Shown here piece after piece: positions 23,877 to 60,680 of a stretch of 64,000 nucleotides of DNA. The notes under the pieces were generated by a model, which had not been told where the DNA came from, did no database searches, and saw nothing but the letters and a program-made list of their open reading frames with translations. Position numbers and translations under genes: made by a program. Numbering within the stretch: the stretch's first letter is position 1; the number at the start of each line of letters is the position of its first letter. The stretch is taken from contig JBQCDH010000027.1 of assembly GCA_051961435.1 (NCBI GenBank), forward strand, positions 32,535 through 96,534. The letters run 5' to 3'. The DNA is from Solirubrobacterales bacterium. GTDB lineage: Bacteria > Actinomycetota > Thermoleophilia > Solirubrobacterales > 70-9.

Positions 23877-26108
23877 TCAGCTCTGCGGCGTGTTGGGGAT
23901 TTCGCGCAGCGGCGCGTTGGCGGGGCCGCAGCCACCCGGGTCGAGCCGCCCCTGCACCTTCCAGACGATCACCGGGCCGCTCATGAGGATCGGCCGCACA
24001 GCCTGGCCGGTTATCCAGCGGGCCTCGGGTGAAGGGATCGGATCGCTCGGATGAATGAAGTTGAGGAAGGGGGCGGTGACGAGGTAGTCGAGGTCGGCTT
24101 CGTTCACCGCCCGGCGGAAGGCGGCGCAGGTGGGAATCGCGTTGAAGGCTCCATGCGGACCCTTTTCGCCCAGGTACTGGACGTGGTTGGTGAGGTCGGT
24201 GCCGTAGAAGCCGTAGCCGGCGAAGCCGGCGGTGGTGCCGACGAGGCCGATGCGGGCATGGCTGAGGTTGCGAGCCCAGGCGTAGGCGCTGTCGAGGTTC
24301 ATGCCGGGGATCTGTTCATCGCCCTTGCCTTCGTTGGCATAGCGGTGCTCGAGGTAATGGCGCTGGAGCGGATAGCCGATCGCGACCAGGAAGAGGGCCG
24401 CGGCCGCGGTGGCCGCGATCGCGATGCCGGCGCCGGCGCGGCGTGAGCGCAGGAGCAGCCAGATGGCGGCGATCGCGGCCACCAGGACGACCAGCGCCAG
24501 GGCGAAGACGCGGCCCTTTTCGTGAAGCGCCTGGTCGGGGCGGTTGGTGACGAGGAAGACCACGACCAGCGCCCCCAGCAGCCACCACTGCCGCCGGGGC
24601 GCGTCGAGCGCGCGCGGCAGCGGCACCAGGACGATGCCGGCGAGCAGGGCCGGGATCACGTAGCGGATGTTGATCCCGAAGCCGACCGGTTCGCCCTCCG
24701 CGCCGGCGGCGCTGAGCGGGGTGAAGAGGTAGGCGACGAGACCGAAGAGGGCGGCGGCGCCGACCCAGCGCACGATCCGGTCGCGGCCTCGGAAGATCGC
24801 CAGGAGGGCCGCGAGAGCGGCGGCGAGGAGGATCAGCGGCCAGAGCACCCCGAACGCCTCGTGCAGAGCGGGCGCGAAGAAGTGGCGCCAGACGCCGGTG
24901 TCGGTGGCGTAGTGGGCGATGTTGAAGTCCGGCCTGCCTTCCTGCAGCCGTTCGGGATGGGGCAGCGAGATCGGCCCCAGCGATTCGACCTCCGGGAGCG
25001 GGTTGCCGGCGACGACGAGGTTGCGCAGGTACCAGAACGCCCCGCCCGCCAGCGCCGGCAGCAGCCACCATCCCGCCGCCGCCCAGCGTCGCCCCAGCGG
25101 CGCCAGCACCACCACCGCCACCGTCAGCGCCGCCGCCATCGCCAGCCCCGTAACCCGCGTCCCCGCCGCCAGCCCGGCCGCCAGCCCGGCCGCAGCAATC
25201 GCCCAGCGCTCCATACGAAACTGTGAACCGATTTCTCCCCGCATACCGGGGACACCGCGACCAGCGTGATTCCAGGCCTCGACGAGGATCGCGATCGAAG
25301 CCAGCAGCAGCGCCGCGGCGGCCAGGTCGTTCTTGGCGGCGCCGGGGTCGCGAACGACGAGGGTGTGACACTCGAGCAGGATCGCCGCGGCGACCGCCGT
25401 CAGTGCCCCCCGCCCGTAGGGCCGTCCCACGCAGTAGGCGGCGAGGAAAGCGACCGCGAGCCAGCCGAAGTTGAGGAACAGCGACAGCGTGTCCCGCCCC
25501 GTCAGCAGGATCCCCACGGCATGAAGAAGTTCCGAATTCTGCGGATAGAACCAGTTCGTGAACACGGTCTCGACGTGGTGCATCCCGACCACGGAGTGGG
25601 TCTGCACCATGTCGACGGCGAACGGCAGGTGGTACCAGAGGCTGTCGAAGTTGAAGATCCCCCGGTCCCATGCATGCTGCGTGGTGACCCCCCAGCTGAA
25701 CAAGGTGATCGCGATCACCAGCGCCATAACGGCTAGGGACCATGCGCTTTCGCCAGCGGGTCCTGTCGCGGGTGGGGGCACCTGCGCTGGATGCTCGGTA
25801 CCCCCACCCGCGCCACCCGCTGGAGAAGCGTTTGCGTCCGAGGGTCGACGCGTAAACAGCAGCGTTCCGGCCGCAAAGAGCAGCGAGGCCACGATCAGGG
25901 TTCCGGCATAGAACAGTCCAACGGTGCCGAGGATCTCGGAGAGCCAAATGACCAGTGCCACAGCGGCAATTGCCTCCACCAGATGCGCCGGAGCGCCCGT
26001 CCAGGTGGGCAGCAACCGCTGGCGCAGCTTGTAGGCGCTGAAAGCCACCGGAACGACGACCAGGACCAGCTGCAGGGCCCCCACGAGATAGGAGCCGAGG
26101 CTAACCAT
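23877..26108 (-). CDS. large polytopic membrane protein (possibly a GT-C-type glycosyltransferase)
   Basis: 743 aa with many hydrophobic helices followed by a C-terminal soluble domain. The family call is a guess from architecture. Confidence 0.65.
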   Translation of the reverse strand: MVSLGSYLVGALQLVLVVVPVAFSAYKLRQRLLPTWTGAPAHLVEAIAAVALVIWLSEILGTVGLFYAGTLIVASLLFAAGTLLFTRRPSDANASPAGGAGGGTEHPAQVPPPATGPAGESAWSLAVMALVIAITLFSWGVTTQHAWDRGIFNFDSLWYHLPFAVDMVQTHSVVGMHHVETVFTNWFYPQNSELLHAVGILLTGRDTLSLFLNFGWLAVAFLAAYCVGRPYGRGALTAVAAAILLECHTLVVRDPGAAKNDLAAAALLLASIAILVEAWNHAGRGVPGMRGEIGSQFRMERWAIAAAGLAAGLAAGTRVTGLAMAAALTVAVVVLAPLGRRWAAAGWWLLPALAGGAFWYLRNLVVAGNPLPEVESLGPISLPHPERLQEGRPDFNIAHYATDTGVWRHFFAPALHEAFGVLWPLILLAAALAALLAIFRGRDRIVRWVGAAALFGLVAYLFTPLSAAGAEGEPVGFGINIRYVIPALLAGIVLVPLPRALDAPRRQWWLLGALVVVFLVTNRPDQALHEKGRVFALALVVLVAAIAAIWLLLRSRRAGAGIAIAATAAAALFLVAIGYPLQRHYLEHRYANEGKGDEQIPGMNLDSAYAWARNLSHARIGLVGTTAGFAGYGFYGTDLTNHVQYLGEKGPHGAFNAIPTCAAFRRAVNEADLDYLVTAPFLNFIHPSDPIPSPEARWITGQAVRPILMSGPVIVWKVQGRLDPGGCGPANAPLREIPNTPQS
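25756..25835 (+). repeat. hairpin repeat copy A (inside the membrane-protein CDS)
   Basis: gcgggtcctgt + stem cgcgggtgggggcacc / ggtacccccacccgcg (15/16 paired, one C-A) + loop TGCGCTGGATGCTC + ccacccgc tail. Confidence 0.8.
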
Positions 26109-36718: not shown

Positions 36719-36882
36719 AGGACCCGCCTCATCGCCCGCGTGTGCGACTGGCGAATGCCGGGCCGAGCGGGGGTAGGACGCAGGGAGGCCGAATGGCAGC
36801 GCCATTTGGCCGACCGAGGACGCCGCCCCGCGAAGTGTGCCCGGTGCCGTCAGGCGTGCGCGGGGGCGATGAGGCGGGTCCT
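36719..36882 (+). other. 164-nt rod-like imperfect palindrome / candidate structured RNA in the rplY-ABC1 intergenic region
   Basis: 32 opposed positions 36719-36750 / 36851-36882 (27 Watson-Crick, 3 G-T, 2 mismatches), inner stems, and an apical hairpin 36787-36797 / 36801-36811. Termini are AGGACCCGC / GCGGGTCCT. Confidence 0.6.
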
Positions 36883-36908
36883 GTGGGCGCCTGTGGCAAC
36901 CTAGCGAC

Positions 36909-40559: not shown

Positions 40560-41585
40560 TCAGAACAGCTGGTTCTCGCCGGCGAAGATCTCCGACACCG
40601 AGTCGTCGGTGAAGATGCGGCGGATCGAATCGGCGAAGGTGCTGGCGGTGGAGAGCACGGTGATGTTGTCCGGGGCGCCGGGGCGCAGCGGCAGGGTGTC
40701 GGTGACGACGATCCGCTCGATCGCCGAGTTCTCCAGCCGTTCGTAGGCGGGACCGGAGAAGACGCCGTGGGTGGCGCAGGCGATCACCTTGGCGGCGCCC
40801 TCGTCGAGCACGGTCTGGGCGGCGGCGCAGAGGGTGCCGGCGGTGTCGATCATGTCGTCGACGAGGACCGCGGTCTTGCCCTCGACGTCGCCGACGACGT
40901 AGCCGATCTCGGCGACCTGCTGGGCCGGGCGCTCCTTCTCCATCACCGCCCACTGGGTGCCGATGCGGCGGGCGAAGTTGCGGGCGGTCTTCACGCGGCC
41001 GGCGTCGGGCGAGACGATCACCAGCTCCTCGTTCATTTCCTGGTCGACGAACCACTGGGTCAGCATCGGCATCGCCGTCATGTGGTCGACCGGGACGTGG
41101 AAGAAGCCCTGGACCTGGCCGGCGTGGAGGTCCATGGTGAGGACACGGTCGACGCCGACGCCCTCGAGGCACTTGGCGACGATGCGGGCGGAGATCGGCT
41201 CGCGCGGAGCCGACTTCTTGTCCTGGCGGGCGTAGCCGTACCAGGGCAGGACGGCGATGATCCGGTGCGCGGAGGCGCCCTGGGCAGCGTCGATCATCGT
41301 CAGCAGCTCCATCAGCGCGTCGTTCGGGGTCATCCCTTCCTGCTCGTTGGCGCAGGTCGACTGGACGAGGAAGACGTCGGCGCCGCGGATCGACTCCTCG
41401 TAGCGGCAGTAGACCTCGCCGTCGGCGAAGGTCTTCAGCGTCACCTGGCCCAGGTCGATTTCGAGCTTGTTCGCCACCTTCGCGGCCAGGTCCATCGAAC
41501 AGCGGCCGCCGAAGACCATCATCCGCTTCGAGTAGTCGTGGTCGATGGCGGTACCCACCTGTGGGCGCTCCTCGATCATGCTCAC
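40560..41585 (-). CDS. prs: ribose-phosphate pyrophosphokinase
   Basis: 341 aa. FADGEVYCRYEESIRGADVFLVQS, VLVDDMIDTAGT. Confidence 0.95.
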   Translation of the reverse strand: MSMIEERPQVGTAIDHDYSKRMMVFGGRCSMDLAAKVANKLEIDLGQVTLKTFADGEVYCRYEESIRGADVFLVQSTCANEQEGMTPNDALMELLTMIDAAQGASAHRIIAVLPWYGYARQDKKSAPREPISARIVAKCLEGVGVDRVLTMDLHAGQVQGFFHVPVDHMTAMPMLTQWFVDQEMNEELVIVSPDAGRVKTARNFARRIGTQWAVMEKERPAQQVAEIGYVVGDVEGKTAVLVDDMIDTAGTLCAAAQTVLDEGAAKVIACATHGVFSGPAYERLENSAIERIVVTDTLPLRPGAPDNITVLSTASTFADSIRRIFTDDSVSEIFAGENQLF

Positions 41586-42976
41586 GGGTTTTCGTCCTCT
41601 CGCATCTCGGCCGCCTTGCGAGCGGCGTATCCGTCGATGTTCCTCTGCGCGTTCTCGCTGACGCCCAGCGCCCCCTCGGGCACGTCGTCCTTGATCACTG
41701 CGCCAGCGCCAGTGTAGGCGGCGTCGCCGACTTCTACCGGTGCGATCAGCATCGTGTCAACGCCGATCCGCACGTTGCGGCCGATCACGGTGCGGTGCTT
41801 GCGGAAACCGTCGTAGTTGGCGGTGATCGTGCCGGCGCCGAGGTTGCTGCCCGGGCCGATCTCGGCGTCGCCGACGTAGGCGAGGTGCGGGACCTTGGTC
41901 CCCTCCCCCACCTGCGAGTTCTTGATCTCGACGAAGGTGCCGGCCTTGGCGCCGTCCTCCAGCAGAGCCCCGGGGCGCAGGTAGGCGAAGGGGCCGACTG
42001 AGCAGCCGGCGCGGACGTCGCACTCGACCAGGTAGGAGTGCAGGACCTGGGAGCCGGCGCCGACGGAGCTGTCGATCAAGGTGCTGAGCGGACCGACGAC
42101 GGCGCCCTCGCCGAGCGCGGTGGCGCCGCGGAGGGTGGTGCCGGGCTCGATGCGCGCGTCGGCGGCGATCTCGACGCCGGCGTCGATCCAGGTCGAGGCG
42201 GGGTCGACGACGGTGACGCCGGCGAGCATGTGGGACTCGAGCAGGCGGCGGCGTCCCTCGGTCTCGACCGCGGCGAGGTCGACGCGGTTGTTGACGCCCA
42301 TCGTCACGGCGAGGTCGTCGGCGCGGTGGGCGGCGACCGAGTGGCCCGCCTCGCGCAGGGCCGGGAGGACGTCGGGGAGGTAGTACTCGCCCTGGGCGTT
42401 GTCGTTGGAGAGCGACTGCAGGGCGGCCGCCAGCGGGGCGGCGTCGAAGGCGTAGGTCCCGGCGTTGACCTCGCGGATCGCCAGCTGCTCGGCGTCGGCG
42501 TCGCCGGCGGCTTTGGCCTCGACCACGCGCTCGACCGCGCCGGAGGCGCCGCGGACGACGCGGCCGTAGGAGCCGGGATCGTCGAGCTCGATCGTCATCA
42601 TCGTCGCCGCCGCGTCCGAGGACGCGTGGGCCTGCAGGAAGTCGGAGATGACCGCGGCGGAGATCAGCGGATGGTCGCCCGAGAGGACCAGGACCGTCTC
42701 GCTCTCCTCGATCAGCGGCAGCGCCGCCCGGATCGCGCCGCCGGTGCCGTCGGGCTGCGGCTGCTCGATGGTCTCCACGCCCTCCGGGAGGCCGGCGGAG
42801 AGGTCGCGTCCCGGCGAGACGATCGCCGCCACCCGCCCGGCGCCAGCCTCGCGCGCGGCGACGATCGGCCAGGCGACCATCGGCCGCCCGCAGACGGGAT
42901 GCAGCATCTTCGGCGTCGACGAGCGCATCCGGGTGCCCTCGCCCGCCGCCATGACCAGGACCAGAGGCAAACTCAC
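41582..42976 (-). CDS. glmU: bifunctional UDP-N-acetylglucosamine pyrophosphorylase / glucosamine-1-phosphate N-acetyltransferase
   Basis: LVMAAGEGTRMRS, left-handed beta-helix hexapeptide repeats in the C-terminal half. GTG 42976 preferred over ATG 43075, because the extension overlaps hairpin repeat copy B. Confidence 0.9.
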   Translation of the reverse strand: MSLPLVLVMAAGEGTRMRSSTPKMLHPVCGRPMVAWPIVAAREAGAGRVAAIVSPGRDLSAGLPEGVETIEQPQPDGTGGAIRAALPLIEESETVLVLSGDHPLISAAVISDFLQAHASSDAAATMMTIELDDPGSYGRVVRGASGAVERVVEAKAAGDADAEQLAIREVNAGTYAFDAAPLAAALQSLSNDNAQGEYYLPDVLPALREAGHSVAAHRADDLAVTMGVNNRVDLAAVETEGRRRLLESHMLAGVTVVDPASTWIDAGVEIAADARIEPGTTLRGATALGEGAVVGPLSTLIDSSVGAGSQVLHSYLVECDVRAGCSVGPFAYLRPGALLEDGAKAGTFVEIKNSQVGEGTKVPHLAYVGDAEIGPGSNLGAGTITANYDGFRKHRTVIGRNVRIGVDTMLIAPVEVGDAAYTGAGAVIKDDVPEGALGVSENAQRNIDGYAARKAAEMREDENP

Positions 42977-43028
42977 CCGCGAATCGTATTGCGGCGTGAG
43001 TTCATCTGCCAGACAAAGGGCTAGGCGG

Positions 43029-43110
43029 GCGGGTCCTGTCGGGGGGAGGGGACGCCTGCGCTGGATGCTCGGCATCCCCTCCCCCCGCCACCCGCCCGAG
43101 GAGCGGTTTC
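43029..43110 (+). repeat. hairpin repeat copy B
   Basis: gcgggtcctgt + stem cggggggaggggacgcc / ggcatcccctccccccg (16/17, one C-A) + loop TGCGCTGGATGCTC + ccacccgc tail. Confidence 0.8.
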
Positions 43111-43145
43111 AGCTGACGGGAAAAAGCGCTCGGCGAATTCCGTCT

Positions 43146-43237
43146 GGCGACCAACGCTCCCCCGGCGGGTGGCCCGAGTGTGGGGGGTACCGAGCATCCA
43201 GCGCAGGTGCCCCCCATCAGCTCGGGCCAGGACCCGC
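43146..43237 (-). repeat. hairpin repeat copy C (inverted relative to copy B)
   Basis: Reverse complement reads gcgggtcctGGCCCGAGctgatGGGGGGCACC-TGCGCTGGATGCTC-GGTACCCCCCacaCTCGGGCCacccgc. Confidence 0.8.
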
Positions 43238-43253
43238 CGGCCGAACTCCTCCG

Positions 43254-43826
43254 TCAGGTGCGCCTGGAGAGTTCTTTGCCGAGGAGAGCCACCGACGTGA
43301 GGGTCCAGCCGGCGAAGATCAGGTCTATGCCGACGAGGAGGCCGATCGCCCAGTCGGCGCTGCTGGGGAACTTGGCCAGCACCAGGATGCCGATCAGCAG
43401 GCCGCAGACGCCGCTGAGGCCGACCCAGCCGGCGTTGGGCTGGCCGCGGGCGATGAAGGCGACGGTGATCCGGGTCACGCCCATGAAGAGGAAATAGATC
43501 CCCAGCACGAAGGTGAGGGTCAGGGTGCCGTTGTGGGGTTCGACGATCAGCCAGAGGCCGACGATCACGGTCAGCACCGCCCACAGCAACCGCAGCAGCA
43601 GGGTCCCCACCGAGTGGGCCGAGAACGCCGCCGCGACCAGAACCGCGCCGACGACCAGCAGCAGCCAGCCGATGAAGATCGCCGTCCCGACCGAGGCGAG
43701 CGCCGGGACCAGGATCGCGATACAGCCGAGGACGATGGCCCCGACCCCGACCGCCATCAGCGCCTTCCAGCTCCGGCTCAGCCCTTCGCGCACTTCGGGA
43801 TCGAGCGACGCTCCACCGATCTCCAT
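43254..43826 (-). CDS. HdeD-family (DUF308) membrane protein
   Basis: 190 aa. Six hydrophobic helices with the repeated G..L.V.G pattern typical of DUF308. Confidence 0.7.
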   Translation of the reverse strand: MEIGGASLDPEVREGLSRSWKALMAVGVGAIVLGCIAILVPALASVGTAIFIGWLLLVVGAVLVAAAFSAHSVGTLLLRLLWAVLTVIVGLWLIVEPHNGTLTLTFVLGIYFLFMGVTRITVAFIARGQPNAGWVGLSGVCGLLIGILVLAKFPSSADWAIGLLVGIDLIFAGWTLTSVALLGKELSRRT

Positions 43827-59608: not shown

Positions 59609-59630
59609 CGCGAGTCCGCGAAAAGTGTCG

Positions 59631-60680
59631 TTATTCGACCGGTTTCGCGGACTCGGCGTTCAGGTAGTCGAGCACTCGCTCGGCGTCGGCCTCCAGGGCC
59701 GCGGCGTCCTTCTTCTTGACCTCTCCCAGGTGTTCGATCGTCACCTTGCCAGCGGCTAAGCGCCAGGTGGCGACGGCGCGGCCGTCGACGAGGGCGAAGG
59801 GGCGGAAGATGCCGTTCGTCGTCACCAGCACCTTGTGCGGGCCGACGACTTCCTCGCGCGAGGTCCAGCCGAGCAGCAGCGGGTCGAAGGCGCCGAGCAG
59901 GCGCGGCGGCGGGATCGGCGCCGGCTCCGGCGAGGAGGCCAGCTCGGCCAGGCCGTCCTCGCGCTCGACCAGCTCCCCGGCGATCGCCTCCAGCCCGAAG
60001 CGGGCGTCGCGTAGCGGCAGCCCCGCCCAGCGGGCGAGGTCGCGGTCGTCGGCGGGGCCGTGCCCGGCCAGGTAGCGGCGCGCCAGCTCGGCCAGCGCCT
60101 GCTCGCGGTCGACCGGCCGCTGCTCGCCGAGCCAGTCGCGGACGAGGACGTAGGCGTGTTCCCTGCCCACCATCGGGCCGCGGACGGCGCTCCCGCGCAG
60201 CGTCGTCAGGAAGAGCAGGTGGATCAGCGCCTGCCCCTCGGTGGGAACGCCGGCGCGGTCGAGCCGCTCGCGCAGCTGCAACCGCGTCAGCGGGCCCTCG
60301 TCGGCGAGCGCCCGCTCGATCGTCTCCACCCCCCGCTCCGCCGCCCCCGGGCTGACCCCCTCCTGCCGCAGCCGCCGCGCGCTCGAGGTCATCAGCGGCG
60401 GCGTCGTCAGCGGGTGCAGCCAGGGATAGTCCTCGCTGCGCACCAGGTGCAGGGTGCCGCGGTTGAGCCAGGTGATCAGCAGCGAGCGCTCCTCGCTCAG
60501 CGCCCGGTCGACGTCGGCCGCGGTCACCCCCTCGCTGCGGGCGCGGATCGCCAGCCGCGCCCCGCGGGGATCCTGCCCCTGCACCGCCAGCAGCCGCTCG
60601 GCGACCGCCTCCGGCGAGCGCAGCGGCTCGCCGGCAAGCGCCTGGGCGGTCAGTCGTTCGGCGATCGGCGCGCGCGGCAC
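59631..60680 (-). CDS. winged-helix DNA glycosylase-like protein (YcaQ/AlkZ, DUF1006 family)
   Basis: 349 aa. LLAVQGQDPRGARLAIRAR...LITWLNRGTLHLV... Confidence 0.75.
   Translation of the reverse strand: MPRAPIAERLTAQALAGEPLRSPEAVAERLLAVQGQDPRGARLAIRARSEGVTAADVDRALSEERSLLITWLNRGTLHLVRSEDYPWLHPLTTPPLMTSSARRLRQEGVSPGAAERGVETIERALADEGPLTRLQLRERLDRAGVPTEGQALIHLLFLTTLRGSAVRGPMVGREHAYVLVRDWLGEQRPVDREQALAELARRYLAGHGPADDRDLARWAGLPLRDARFGLEAIAGELVEREDGLAELASSPEPAPIPPPRLLGAFDPLLLGWTSREEVVGPHKVLVTTNGIFRPFALVDGRAVATWRLAAGKVTIEHLGEVKKKDAAALEADAERVLDYLNAESAKPVE

Follow-up and report, generated by a model that had tools for sequence, protein, structure and literature searches.

A candidate modular palindromic repeat of soil Solirubrobacterales, carried in frame within protein genes and past stop codons

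What are the three hairpins that carry one and the same loop in a 64,000-nt stretch of a Solirubrobacterales genome (the window, that is, all of the DNA analysed here), two of them facing each other in the spacer between an hdeD-like gene and glmU? The loop motif, TGCGCTGGATGCTC, has exactly three exact occurrences in the window (Table 1), a match count that is reached by 0 of 100 shuffles, and all three, named copies A, B and C, share the 5′ flank GCGGGTCCTG and the 3′ flank CCACCCGC, followed by a GAG(R)AGCG tail. Three hairpins with an identical motif had been proposed from the letters alone, and this much is borne out. The copies can be aligned over ~85 nt, with stems that are unlike yet complementary; each is predicted to fold into one long hairpin (z-scores -3.5 to -6.9), and a covariance model scores them at 60–67 bits (E ~1e-11 to 1e-12). 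As A, B and C are not near-identical, the window bears no sign of a recent burst. The single C·A opposition per copy that the original prediction reported is present in 3/3 copies, two pairs below the CC/GG closing pairs, and because these oppositions turn into G·U pairs on the complementary strand, it is that strand which folds better. Copies B and C lie tail to tail between the DUF308 (HdeD-type) gene and glmU, and their distance, put at about 35 nt beforehand, is 35 nt. Copy A is not intergenic: it lies in frame within the ORF of a 743-aa membrane protein, which the original prediction missed.

Our preferred reading, to which we assign a probability of roughly 0.55, is that all three are copies of a non-autonomous, modular, GC-rich palindromic repeat of ~65–110 nt in soil Solirubrobacterales, similar in kind to REP, RPE and MITE elements, which would spread or be exchanged by means of its clamp and whose sense copies in spacers would be kept as 3′ hairpins. 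The modules are a conserved basal clamp, freely covarying stems and an exchangeable apex, which in the window reads CCUGCGCUGGAUGCUCGGYA.

Table 1. Hairpin copies, their apex motifs and the neighbouring or host genes, in window coordinates
Feature	Position	Strand	Remarks
Multi-pass membrane protein, 743 aa, no Pfam match	23877..26108	-	hosts copy A
Copy A	25753..25830	+	CCA-GCGGGTCCTGTC, stem, apex, stem', GCCACCCGC-TGG-AGAAGCG
Apex motif TGCGCTGGATGCTC of copy A	25783..25796	+	
Separate palindrome of ~165 nt	36719..36883	.	each arm terminates in the 5′ half of the clamp (AGGACCCGCC / GGCGGGTCCTGT)
glmU (NTP_transferase + hexapeptide repeats)	41582..42976	-	downstream of copy B; start codon approximate
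Copy B	43024..43105	+	antisense to hdeD-like and glmU transcription; in the spacer upstream of glmU
Apex motif of copy B	43057..43070	+	
Copy C	43155..43242	-	same sense as the DUF308 gene
Apex motif of copy C	43192..43205	-	
DUF308 (HdeD-type) membrane protein gene	43254..43826	-	upstream of copy C

How far does the apex hold beyond these three copies? The '14-nt loop' is itself predicted to fold, through G-C, C·U, G-C and C-G, into a UGGAU loop. It had been called invariant, and it is the same in A, B and C; in copies that were chosen independently of the loop, however, it is only nearly so, with five exact loops and three carrying one or two substitutions (T6>A twice). A scan of relatives with the 18-mer CCTGCGCTGGATGCTCGG, using one genome per species, gave at least 124 matches, and among the 124 listed there are 45 apex hairpins, nearly all of them from Solirubrobacterales or from uncultured actinomycete MAGs. 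As a separate observation, 79 of the 124 exact 18-mer matches listed (L001–L119) code for the peptide LRWMLG, in IleRS and other proteins of many phyla. Searches for the family by its motif alone will mostly yield such coding false positives.

The stems, by comparison, are free to change as long as they pair. In 43 distinct hairpins from relatives, the share of paired stem cells is 88.2%, compared with 62.5% for shuffles and 37–49% for slid controls, and 176 cells are altered on both sides where 63 would be expected, a number as high as which is seen in 0 of 500 shuffles. On these figures the claim of covariation is sound, and the view that compensatory changes preserve the fold and not the sequence of the stem, first put forward for the window, is supported. 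Arm-to-arm correction of a quasi-palindrome could yield part of the apparent compensation without selection, but it would leave the strand-specific motifs unaccounted for. Near the apex, mismatches are one-sided: on the TGCGC (sense-oriented) strand there are 28 C·A vs 4 G·U, which makes the sense RNA less stable than its complement, and the C·A mismatches cluster in the two pairs adjoining the CC/GG closure. Furthermore, the 3′ flank is Y-A in ~30 of the 43 copies, regardless of the pairing partner. It is on account of the one-sided mismatches together with this partner-independent flank that we take the conserved motif to span ~20 nt rather than the loop. Mutation bias was considered as the source of the C·A excess and rejected, since the excess is tied to particular positions and runs opposite to what transcription-coupled deamination would give; we read it as a sequence requirement (GGYA) instead. 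The apex CUGCGCUGGAU (window positions 43055–43072, and other apex copies) also seems to resemble the universally conserved 3′ end of 16S rRNA, UGCGGCUGGAUCACCUCC by the sequence of primer 1541R.

The base of the hairpin is a module in its own right. Searching relatives with the flanks alone turns up this base again, GCGGGTCCTGTC...GCCACCCGC, with interiors that differ widely, and the clamp GCGGGUCCUGUC...GCCACCCGC recurs at the base of more than 100 hairpins from soil metagenomes, with many other interiors. When metagenomes were scanned with the clamp alone, at least 128 matches were obtained; of the 128 listed, ~116 are stable hairpins with the same ((((((...(.( closing geometry, and 12 fall below the stability cut-off of -30 kcal/mol. 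The window-type apex is represented among these 128 by only one exact match and one variant, and the interiors of the listed clamp elements form families of 65 nt, 74 nt and 86 nt and several others, the 86-nt family having covarying helices of its own and a conserved apex, GGUAGCUAAAGCUUCC. The original prediction was right to see a hairpin family, but it overlooked that the base (GCGGGTCCTG/CCACCCGC) and the loop belong to a much larger superfamily, each as a module independent of the other. CUGCG and CUCG, in either order, stand at the apex in ~50 of the 121 clamp elements listed, where ~2 are expected, and in only 0–2 on the reverse complement; these shared motifs, confined almost wholly to the forward strand, show the apex modules of the sister families to be related and strand-specific.

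The clamp consensus, GG-NNN-GCGGGUCCUGUC ... GCCACCCGC-N'N'N'-AGRRGCG, describes a helix of 9 bp that leads into an internal loop (CCU/C) and a bulged U. The helix goes on past the clamp (GCGGGT/ACCCGC) with three covarying pairs, paired in 92%, 89% and 75% of cases vs 44–54% in shuffles, and beyond them come conserved G·A and G·G oppositions and the 3′ tail AGRRGCG. An outer helix (P0), in which the tail would pair with upstream sequence, found no support past the three pairs and was rejected. The same applies to the tail GGAGRRGCG as the Shine–Dalgarno sequence of the next gene, since a plausible start codon stands behind it in only 7 of 153 elements, and to K-turn, hammerhead, SRP and Y-RNA readings of the clamp, whose defining nucleotides are absent as judged by eye.

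The clamp also occurs in AT-rich spacers of contigs with 37–51% GC. One of these (L122, 37% GC) belongs to Candidatus Omnitrophica, with a HypE that is 74–77% identical to Candidatus Omnitrophica proteins. At five loci of 37–48% GC (L122, L149, L169, L202 and L219) a GC-rich clamp hairpin stands in an AT-rich spacer past a housekeeping gene, for example hypE, and these low-GC copies have a common interior of their own, with UC/UC internal loops. The window itself holds a further near-perfect palindrome of ~165 nt in the divergent spacer between two genes (RNA MFE -134 kcal/mol, z -8.2), which is possibly akin to the hairpin family, only larger, and a small unrelated inverted repeat at 59611–59655 (20 bp, 85% complementary, 5-nt loop).

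What does an element such as copy A do inside a gene? It lies in a linker between the third and fourth hydrophobic segments of its host protein (judged by eye to be transmembrane helices), whose mRNA carries the reverse complement of copy A, with the loop reading GAGCAUCCAGCGCA and the peptide ..GGTEHPAQVPPPATGPAG... The NCBI product of this gene, ACTHK6_08395, is an identical product of 616 aa with its start placed past the hairpin; the N-terminus of the 743-aa ORF is covered by 119 homologues of 720–771 aa. A clamp element occupies the same linker in 119/119 of the sampled homologues, in both orientations, giving rise to the peptide pattern ..LPGGG[interior]TGPAGP.. when antisense and ..WPAGPV[interior]PPTGE.. 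when sense (GTEHPAQVPPPATGPAG is one example of a peptide encoded by an insert). At fixed sites of this kind, elements are replaced or inverted much faster than the flanking proteins diverge. The membrane-protein linker holds at least 15 interior types in addition to near-empty clamps (P0078, P0010), and a protein's nearest neighbour on the protein tree has the same type in just 34 of 120 cases. The ten closest orthologues of the window's protein (86–90% identity) all carry other interior types, and the window-type apex is found in four membrane proteins that are scattered on the tree. The pattern of interiors and orientations was confirmed on DNA from five loci. A distant homologue (L178, 70–770; 35% identity) has another long palindrome, without clamp, in the same linker (GGGAGGGCGACGGGGGTGTCCCCCTCGC...GCGAGAGGGACACCCCCATCCCCCTCCC).

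The linker between the wedge and helicase domains of RecG is an element site with similar behaviour. Some orthologues have an empty site (P0122, P0134), others carry the window-type apex in antisense (L005, L033, L110, P0121, P0129) or the 86-nt family in sense (P0128, P0190), and further ones contain other families or remnants ('GPRVLS'). An MMPL transporter holds another in-frame copy; elements persist in frame in coding sequences (membrane protein, RecG, MMPL), including essential genes such as recG. Where the flanks are confidently coding on one strand, 22/24 elements are in frame and 19 are open, which indicates that the inserts are translated and not spliced out. In orthologous RecG copies, compensated changes (GATG/CATC, GACT/AGTC, GACC/GGTC) alter the encoded residues, arguing that it is the nucleic-acid fold that is kept and not the peptide. 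Neither at the DUF308–glmU site nor between filled and empty RecG sites was a target-site duplication or a clean insertion boundary found.

Intron-like removal of the copies in coding sequences was rejected on the strength of the same in-frame count, and because the short RecG at locus L242 is a gene-caller artefact: the JGI call for this protein (P0174) is 545 aa, yet the ORF is continuous on the DNA. Other RecG products of 545–546 aa that start past the element are probably gene-caller artefacts as well, or stem from contigs that end at the repeat. At L243 (2950–3130), the insert in RecG is long and composite and contains a TGA in frame, and two ORFs are called for the gene; as the contig is from a long-read MAG, either an error in sequencing or a true split of the gene may lie behind this.

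The elements are dispersed at many loci, with presence and absence at the same site among related genomes. Copies in spacers lie 6–40 nt past stop codons, typically 10–20 nt, and their orientation is biased: where the upstream sequence is confidently coding, a stop codon precedes the clamp by at most 40 nt in 32 sense vs 5 antisense cases (28:3 in an earlier, cruder, ORF-based count). The stop codons before sense clamp elements (L120–L239) are TAG 18, TGA 12 and TAA 5 (n = 35, some orthologues among them); for genomes of ~70% GC, TAG seems over-represented in this set of 35 stops, from which orthologues were not removed. The apex can also do without the clamp, directly past stop codons in orthologous spacers of several Solirubrobacterales species (phoU–ppx/gppA, upstream of proC, after a carboxyltransferase gene). 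All of these sites are sense-oriented, and at orthologous ones the hairpins have the same apex and stems that differ almost wholly. Against a reading of the repeat as selfish only, such clampless apices look more like a host cis-element, and selection on RNA is indicated by the strand-specificity of the motifs as well as by the 32:5 bias, neither of which purely selfish DNA would need.

Could the hairpin then be a host-encoded, non-mobile cis-RNA, that is, a 3′-UTR or intercistronic structure with an apex and clamp that serve as binding sites for a specific RNA-binding protein or RNase controlling 3′ ends, stability or processing, and of which the copies in genes are by-products? This is the main rival to the preferred reading, and we consider it a possible, if unlikely, account. 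It would readily explain the 32:5 sense orientation 6–40 nt past stops, the clampless hairpins kept at orthologous spacers despite full turnover of their stems, the strand-specific conservation of the motif, a GGYA flank that is conserved whatever its pairing partner and a clamp that is shared across phyla, including the Omnitrophica contig. It sits badly, however, with in-frame copies in both orientations in RecG, MMPL and the membrane protein, with presence/absence polymorphism, swapped interiors and inversions at fixed sites, with antisense copies such as B, and with the absence of a U-tract. Of the marks of an intrinsic terminator, a GC-rich hairpin directly past a gene with a U-tract behind it, position and sense orientation (32:5) would fit; a terminator scan called no U-tract terminator at the hairpins, and only 2–3 U follow the tail. 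A role as terminator or mRNA stabiliser for the hdeD-like gene, one of the functions originally suggested, is plausible for copy C alone, whose clamp begins in sense 16 nt past the TGA stop of the DUF308 gene, but not for A, within a coding sequence, nor for B, which is antisense.

Scans of Rfam 15, both at gathering thresholds and by E-value, gave no family for the hairpins in the window, at 17 loci of relatives and at 5 low-GC loci; in the window, three tRNAs were the only hits, and the hairpins had just sub-threshold matches of microRNA type. In this respect the initial impression that the hairpins belong to no named RNA family has held. It also bears on the idea that the copies are independent small RNA genes or riboswitch-like sensors. 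Such a function would be compatible with the strong structure and covariation, but against it stand a search that found no promoter or terminator signals, the absence of an Rfam match, copies that lie in ORFs and in both orientations, and interiors far too variable for a ligand pocket, all of which render it extremely improbable.

Under the preferred reading of a modular palindromic repeat, spread or exchange would take place at the DNA level via the clamp, either through a hypothetical trans-acting transposase or recombinase that recognises the hairpin, or through ectopic conversion between copies. What speaks for spread at this level are the off-tree interiors of the membrane protein, the in-frame copies and the variable RecG sites. 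What keeps the hairpin intact might be selection acting on one strand with a set polarity, or else the correction of one palindrome arm by the other, and copies would last where they are harmless, translated in permissive protein linkers, or where they are useful. Sense copies past stop codons, such as copy C, would most likely act as 3′-end hairpins of transcripts, either stabilising the mRNA or terminating transcription with no U-tract, a role for RNA that is suggested by the strand-specific apex motifs and the sense placement past stops. Apex and clamp, finally, would be putative binding sites of a hypothetical factor.

Against the enzymatic side of this proposal stands that tblastn, in a test made weak by its queries, tied no transposase, RAYT or recombinase to the elements, and that neither a transposase, integrase or recombinase nor a cassette array adjoined the few copies whose neighbouring genes were inspected. 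Further points against the preferred reading are that neither target-site duplications nor clean insertion boundaries were found, that the window's copies are not near-identical, that no canonical U-tract terminator is present and that the sense RNA is the less stable strand. BLAST against a plasmid collection gave no match to the elements, and two matches in viral contigs both code for LRWMLG, neither being a hairpin.

A more specific version of such exchange is suggested by integrons, where attC sites are defined by an R''/R' core (RYYYAAC / GTTRRRY), a cassette array and the IntI integrase. As in attC, whose function needs the folded single strand, the elements have a conserved base, an unpaired spacer, an extrahelical base and a variable palindromic top. 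The clamp might accordingly be an attC-like recombination site in folded single-stranded form, at which a site-specific recombinase swaps or inverts the apical 'cassette'. The match of the conserved base, CCU/C bubble, bulged U and always palindromic top to attC would favour this weaker rival, as would one fixed in-gene site with at least 15 polyphyletic interiors in both orientations, the occurrence of empty clamps and an identical clamp sequence in distant phyla. We nevertheless find it improbable: the GTTRRRY core is absent, integrases, cassette arrays and recombinase genes were not seen near the copies inspected, and the elements sit in housekeeping spacers and coding sequences. Moreover, the 3′ tail flips along with the orientation, so that inversion between the clamp arms alone does not account for a change of orientation, and ordinary ectopic conversion or repeated insertion could produce the same pattern. 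In a broader form, and by analogy with attC only, the clamp could be the recognition site of a hypothetical cross-phylum, hairpin-specific recombinase or transposase that acts on folded single-stranded DNA and swaps or inverts apical cassettes at fixed sites, including recG. This we hold to be rather unlikely; if true, it would provide for hypervariable protein linkers and portable 3′-end hairpins.

Should the preferred reading of a clamp-borne palindromic repeat be correct, it would extend palindromic DNA of the Rickettsia type within protein genes to abundant soil Actinomycetota, and with an unusual dynamic, namely a fixed site in a conserved protein that takes up many interchangeable hairpin interiors in either orientation. 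The presence of the same 21-nt clamp in an actinomycete order and in one Omnitrophica contig of 37% GC points to a possibly widespread, hypothetical factor that reads the internal loop of the hairpin. On a practical level, the elements have already corrupted gene calls, the window's membrane protein being annotated 127 residues short and the L242 RecG as 545 aa, and metagenome assemblies are probably broken by them too. Many deposited RecG products start just past the element.

How do the elements compare to known systems? REPs have a conserved 5′ GTAG tetranucleotide next to a palindrome of 20–40 nt with a conserved stem and are strictly extragenic; a RAYT is a Y1 HUH gene that is typically flanked by REPs, and HUH Y1 enzymes (IS200/IS605, RAYT) recognise imperfect hairpins with a bulged base. 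Like REP/BIME and the REPIN-RAYT systems of Proteobacteria, the present elements are imperfect palindromes just past genes, form inverted doublets and vary in locus content between relatives, and as transcribed hairpins they may share the REP feature of stabilising upstream mRNA. The DUF308–glmU doublet is ancestral to three species. In L016, it is intact, with the orthologue of copy B kept and that of copy C bearing a different, replaced interior; in L078, the orthologue of copy C has the same stem type with compensated changes, and that of copy B has decayed to an empty clamp. Further tail-to-tail doublets exist at L135 and L199, with gaps of 35–68 nt overall, and most copies are single. A REP or REPIN mobilised by a RAYT, with B and C as a REPIN doublet, had been among the roles envisaged at the outset. 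Of this, the dispersed family, the REP/BIME-like position and the recurrent tail-to-tail doublets (window, L016, L135, L199) stand, and the bulged base and internal loop would suit targets of HUH Y1 enzymes just as the variable occupancy per locus would suit BIMEs. Yet the GTAG box is lacking, conservation lies in internal loops, bulges and apex while stems vary freely, the elements are 2–3 times as long as REPs, the spacing of doublets varies, and copies reside in genes too (membrane protein, RecG, MMPL). No RAYT/IS200-like ORF was detected by tblastn in 1.8 Mb of related loci and the window, a weak test by virtue of its queries (IS200 TnpA and YafM). Mobilisation by a RAYT is therefore, in our estimation, another weak and doubtful rival.

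No description came up in full-text literature searches, whether by motif string or for palindromes in Solirubrobacterales or Conexibacter, so that the hairpin family is apparently undescribed; its absence from Rfam and from the searchable literature is not proof of novelty. Similar to MITEs, such as the Correia/NEMIS elements of Neisseria, it is short, non-autonomous and multi-copy, with inverted termini (GCGGGT / ACCCGC) and with co-transcription and gene fusions as possible outcomes. In contrast to MITEs, no target-site duplication is seen in the comparison of filled and empty RecG sites, and no parent IS with the same ends came to light, with no transposase gene beside the few copies inspected. 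The termini are not simple terminal inverted repeats because the helix continues as covarying pairs outside of them, the flanks being complementary and not direct repeats. A conserved, U-less, terminator-like hairpin of Mycobacterium tuberculosis, TRIT, which Gardner and colleagues are said to have described in 2011, is likewise a repeated, sequence-conserved, GC-rich hairpin past actinobacterial genes without a clear U-tract, but, compared by description only, it is not reported in genes or as a modular element.

The Rickettsia palindromic elements (RPE), reportedly described by Ogata and colleagues in 2000, are dispersed palindromic repeats of ~100 nt that are found in spacers as well as in frame within conserved protein genes, are translated as extra surface or linker peptides, lack a transposase of their own and have misled gene annotation. 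The present elements resemble them in all of this, with palindromes that are in frame and read through (22/24 in frame, 19 open) and a RecG that exists with and without the insert. They differ in belonging to another phylum, with no sequence relation claimed, in being modular (clamp plus exchangeable apex), in the many interiors and both orientations at a given site, and in the sense bias of spacer copies past stops; given the different phylum and GC content, homology to RPE is unlikely. As functional analogues, however, RPE come closest on account of the in-frame copies, together with REP/BIME, which share the placement past genes, the doublets and an occupancy that varies at a given locus.
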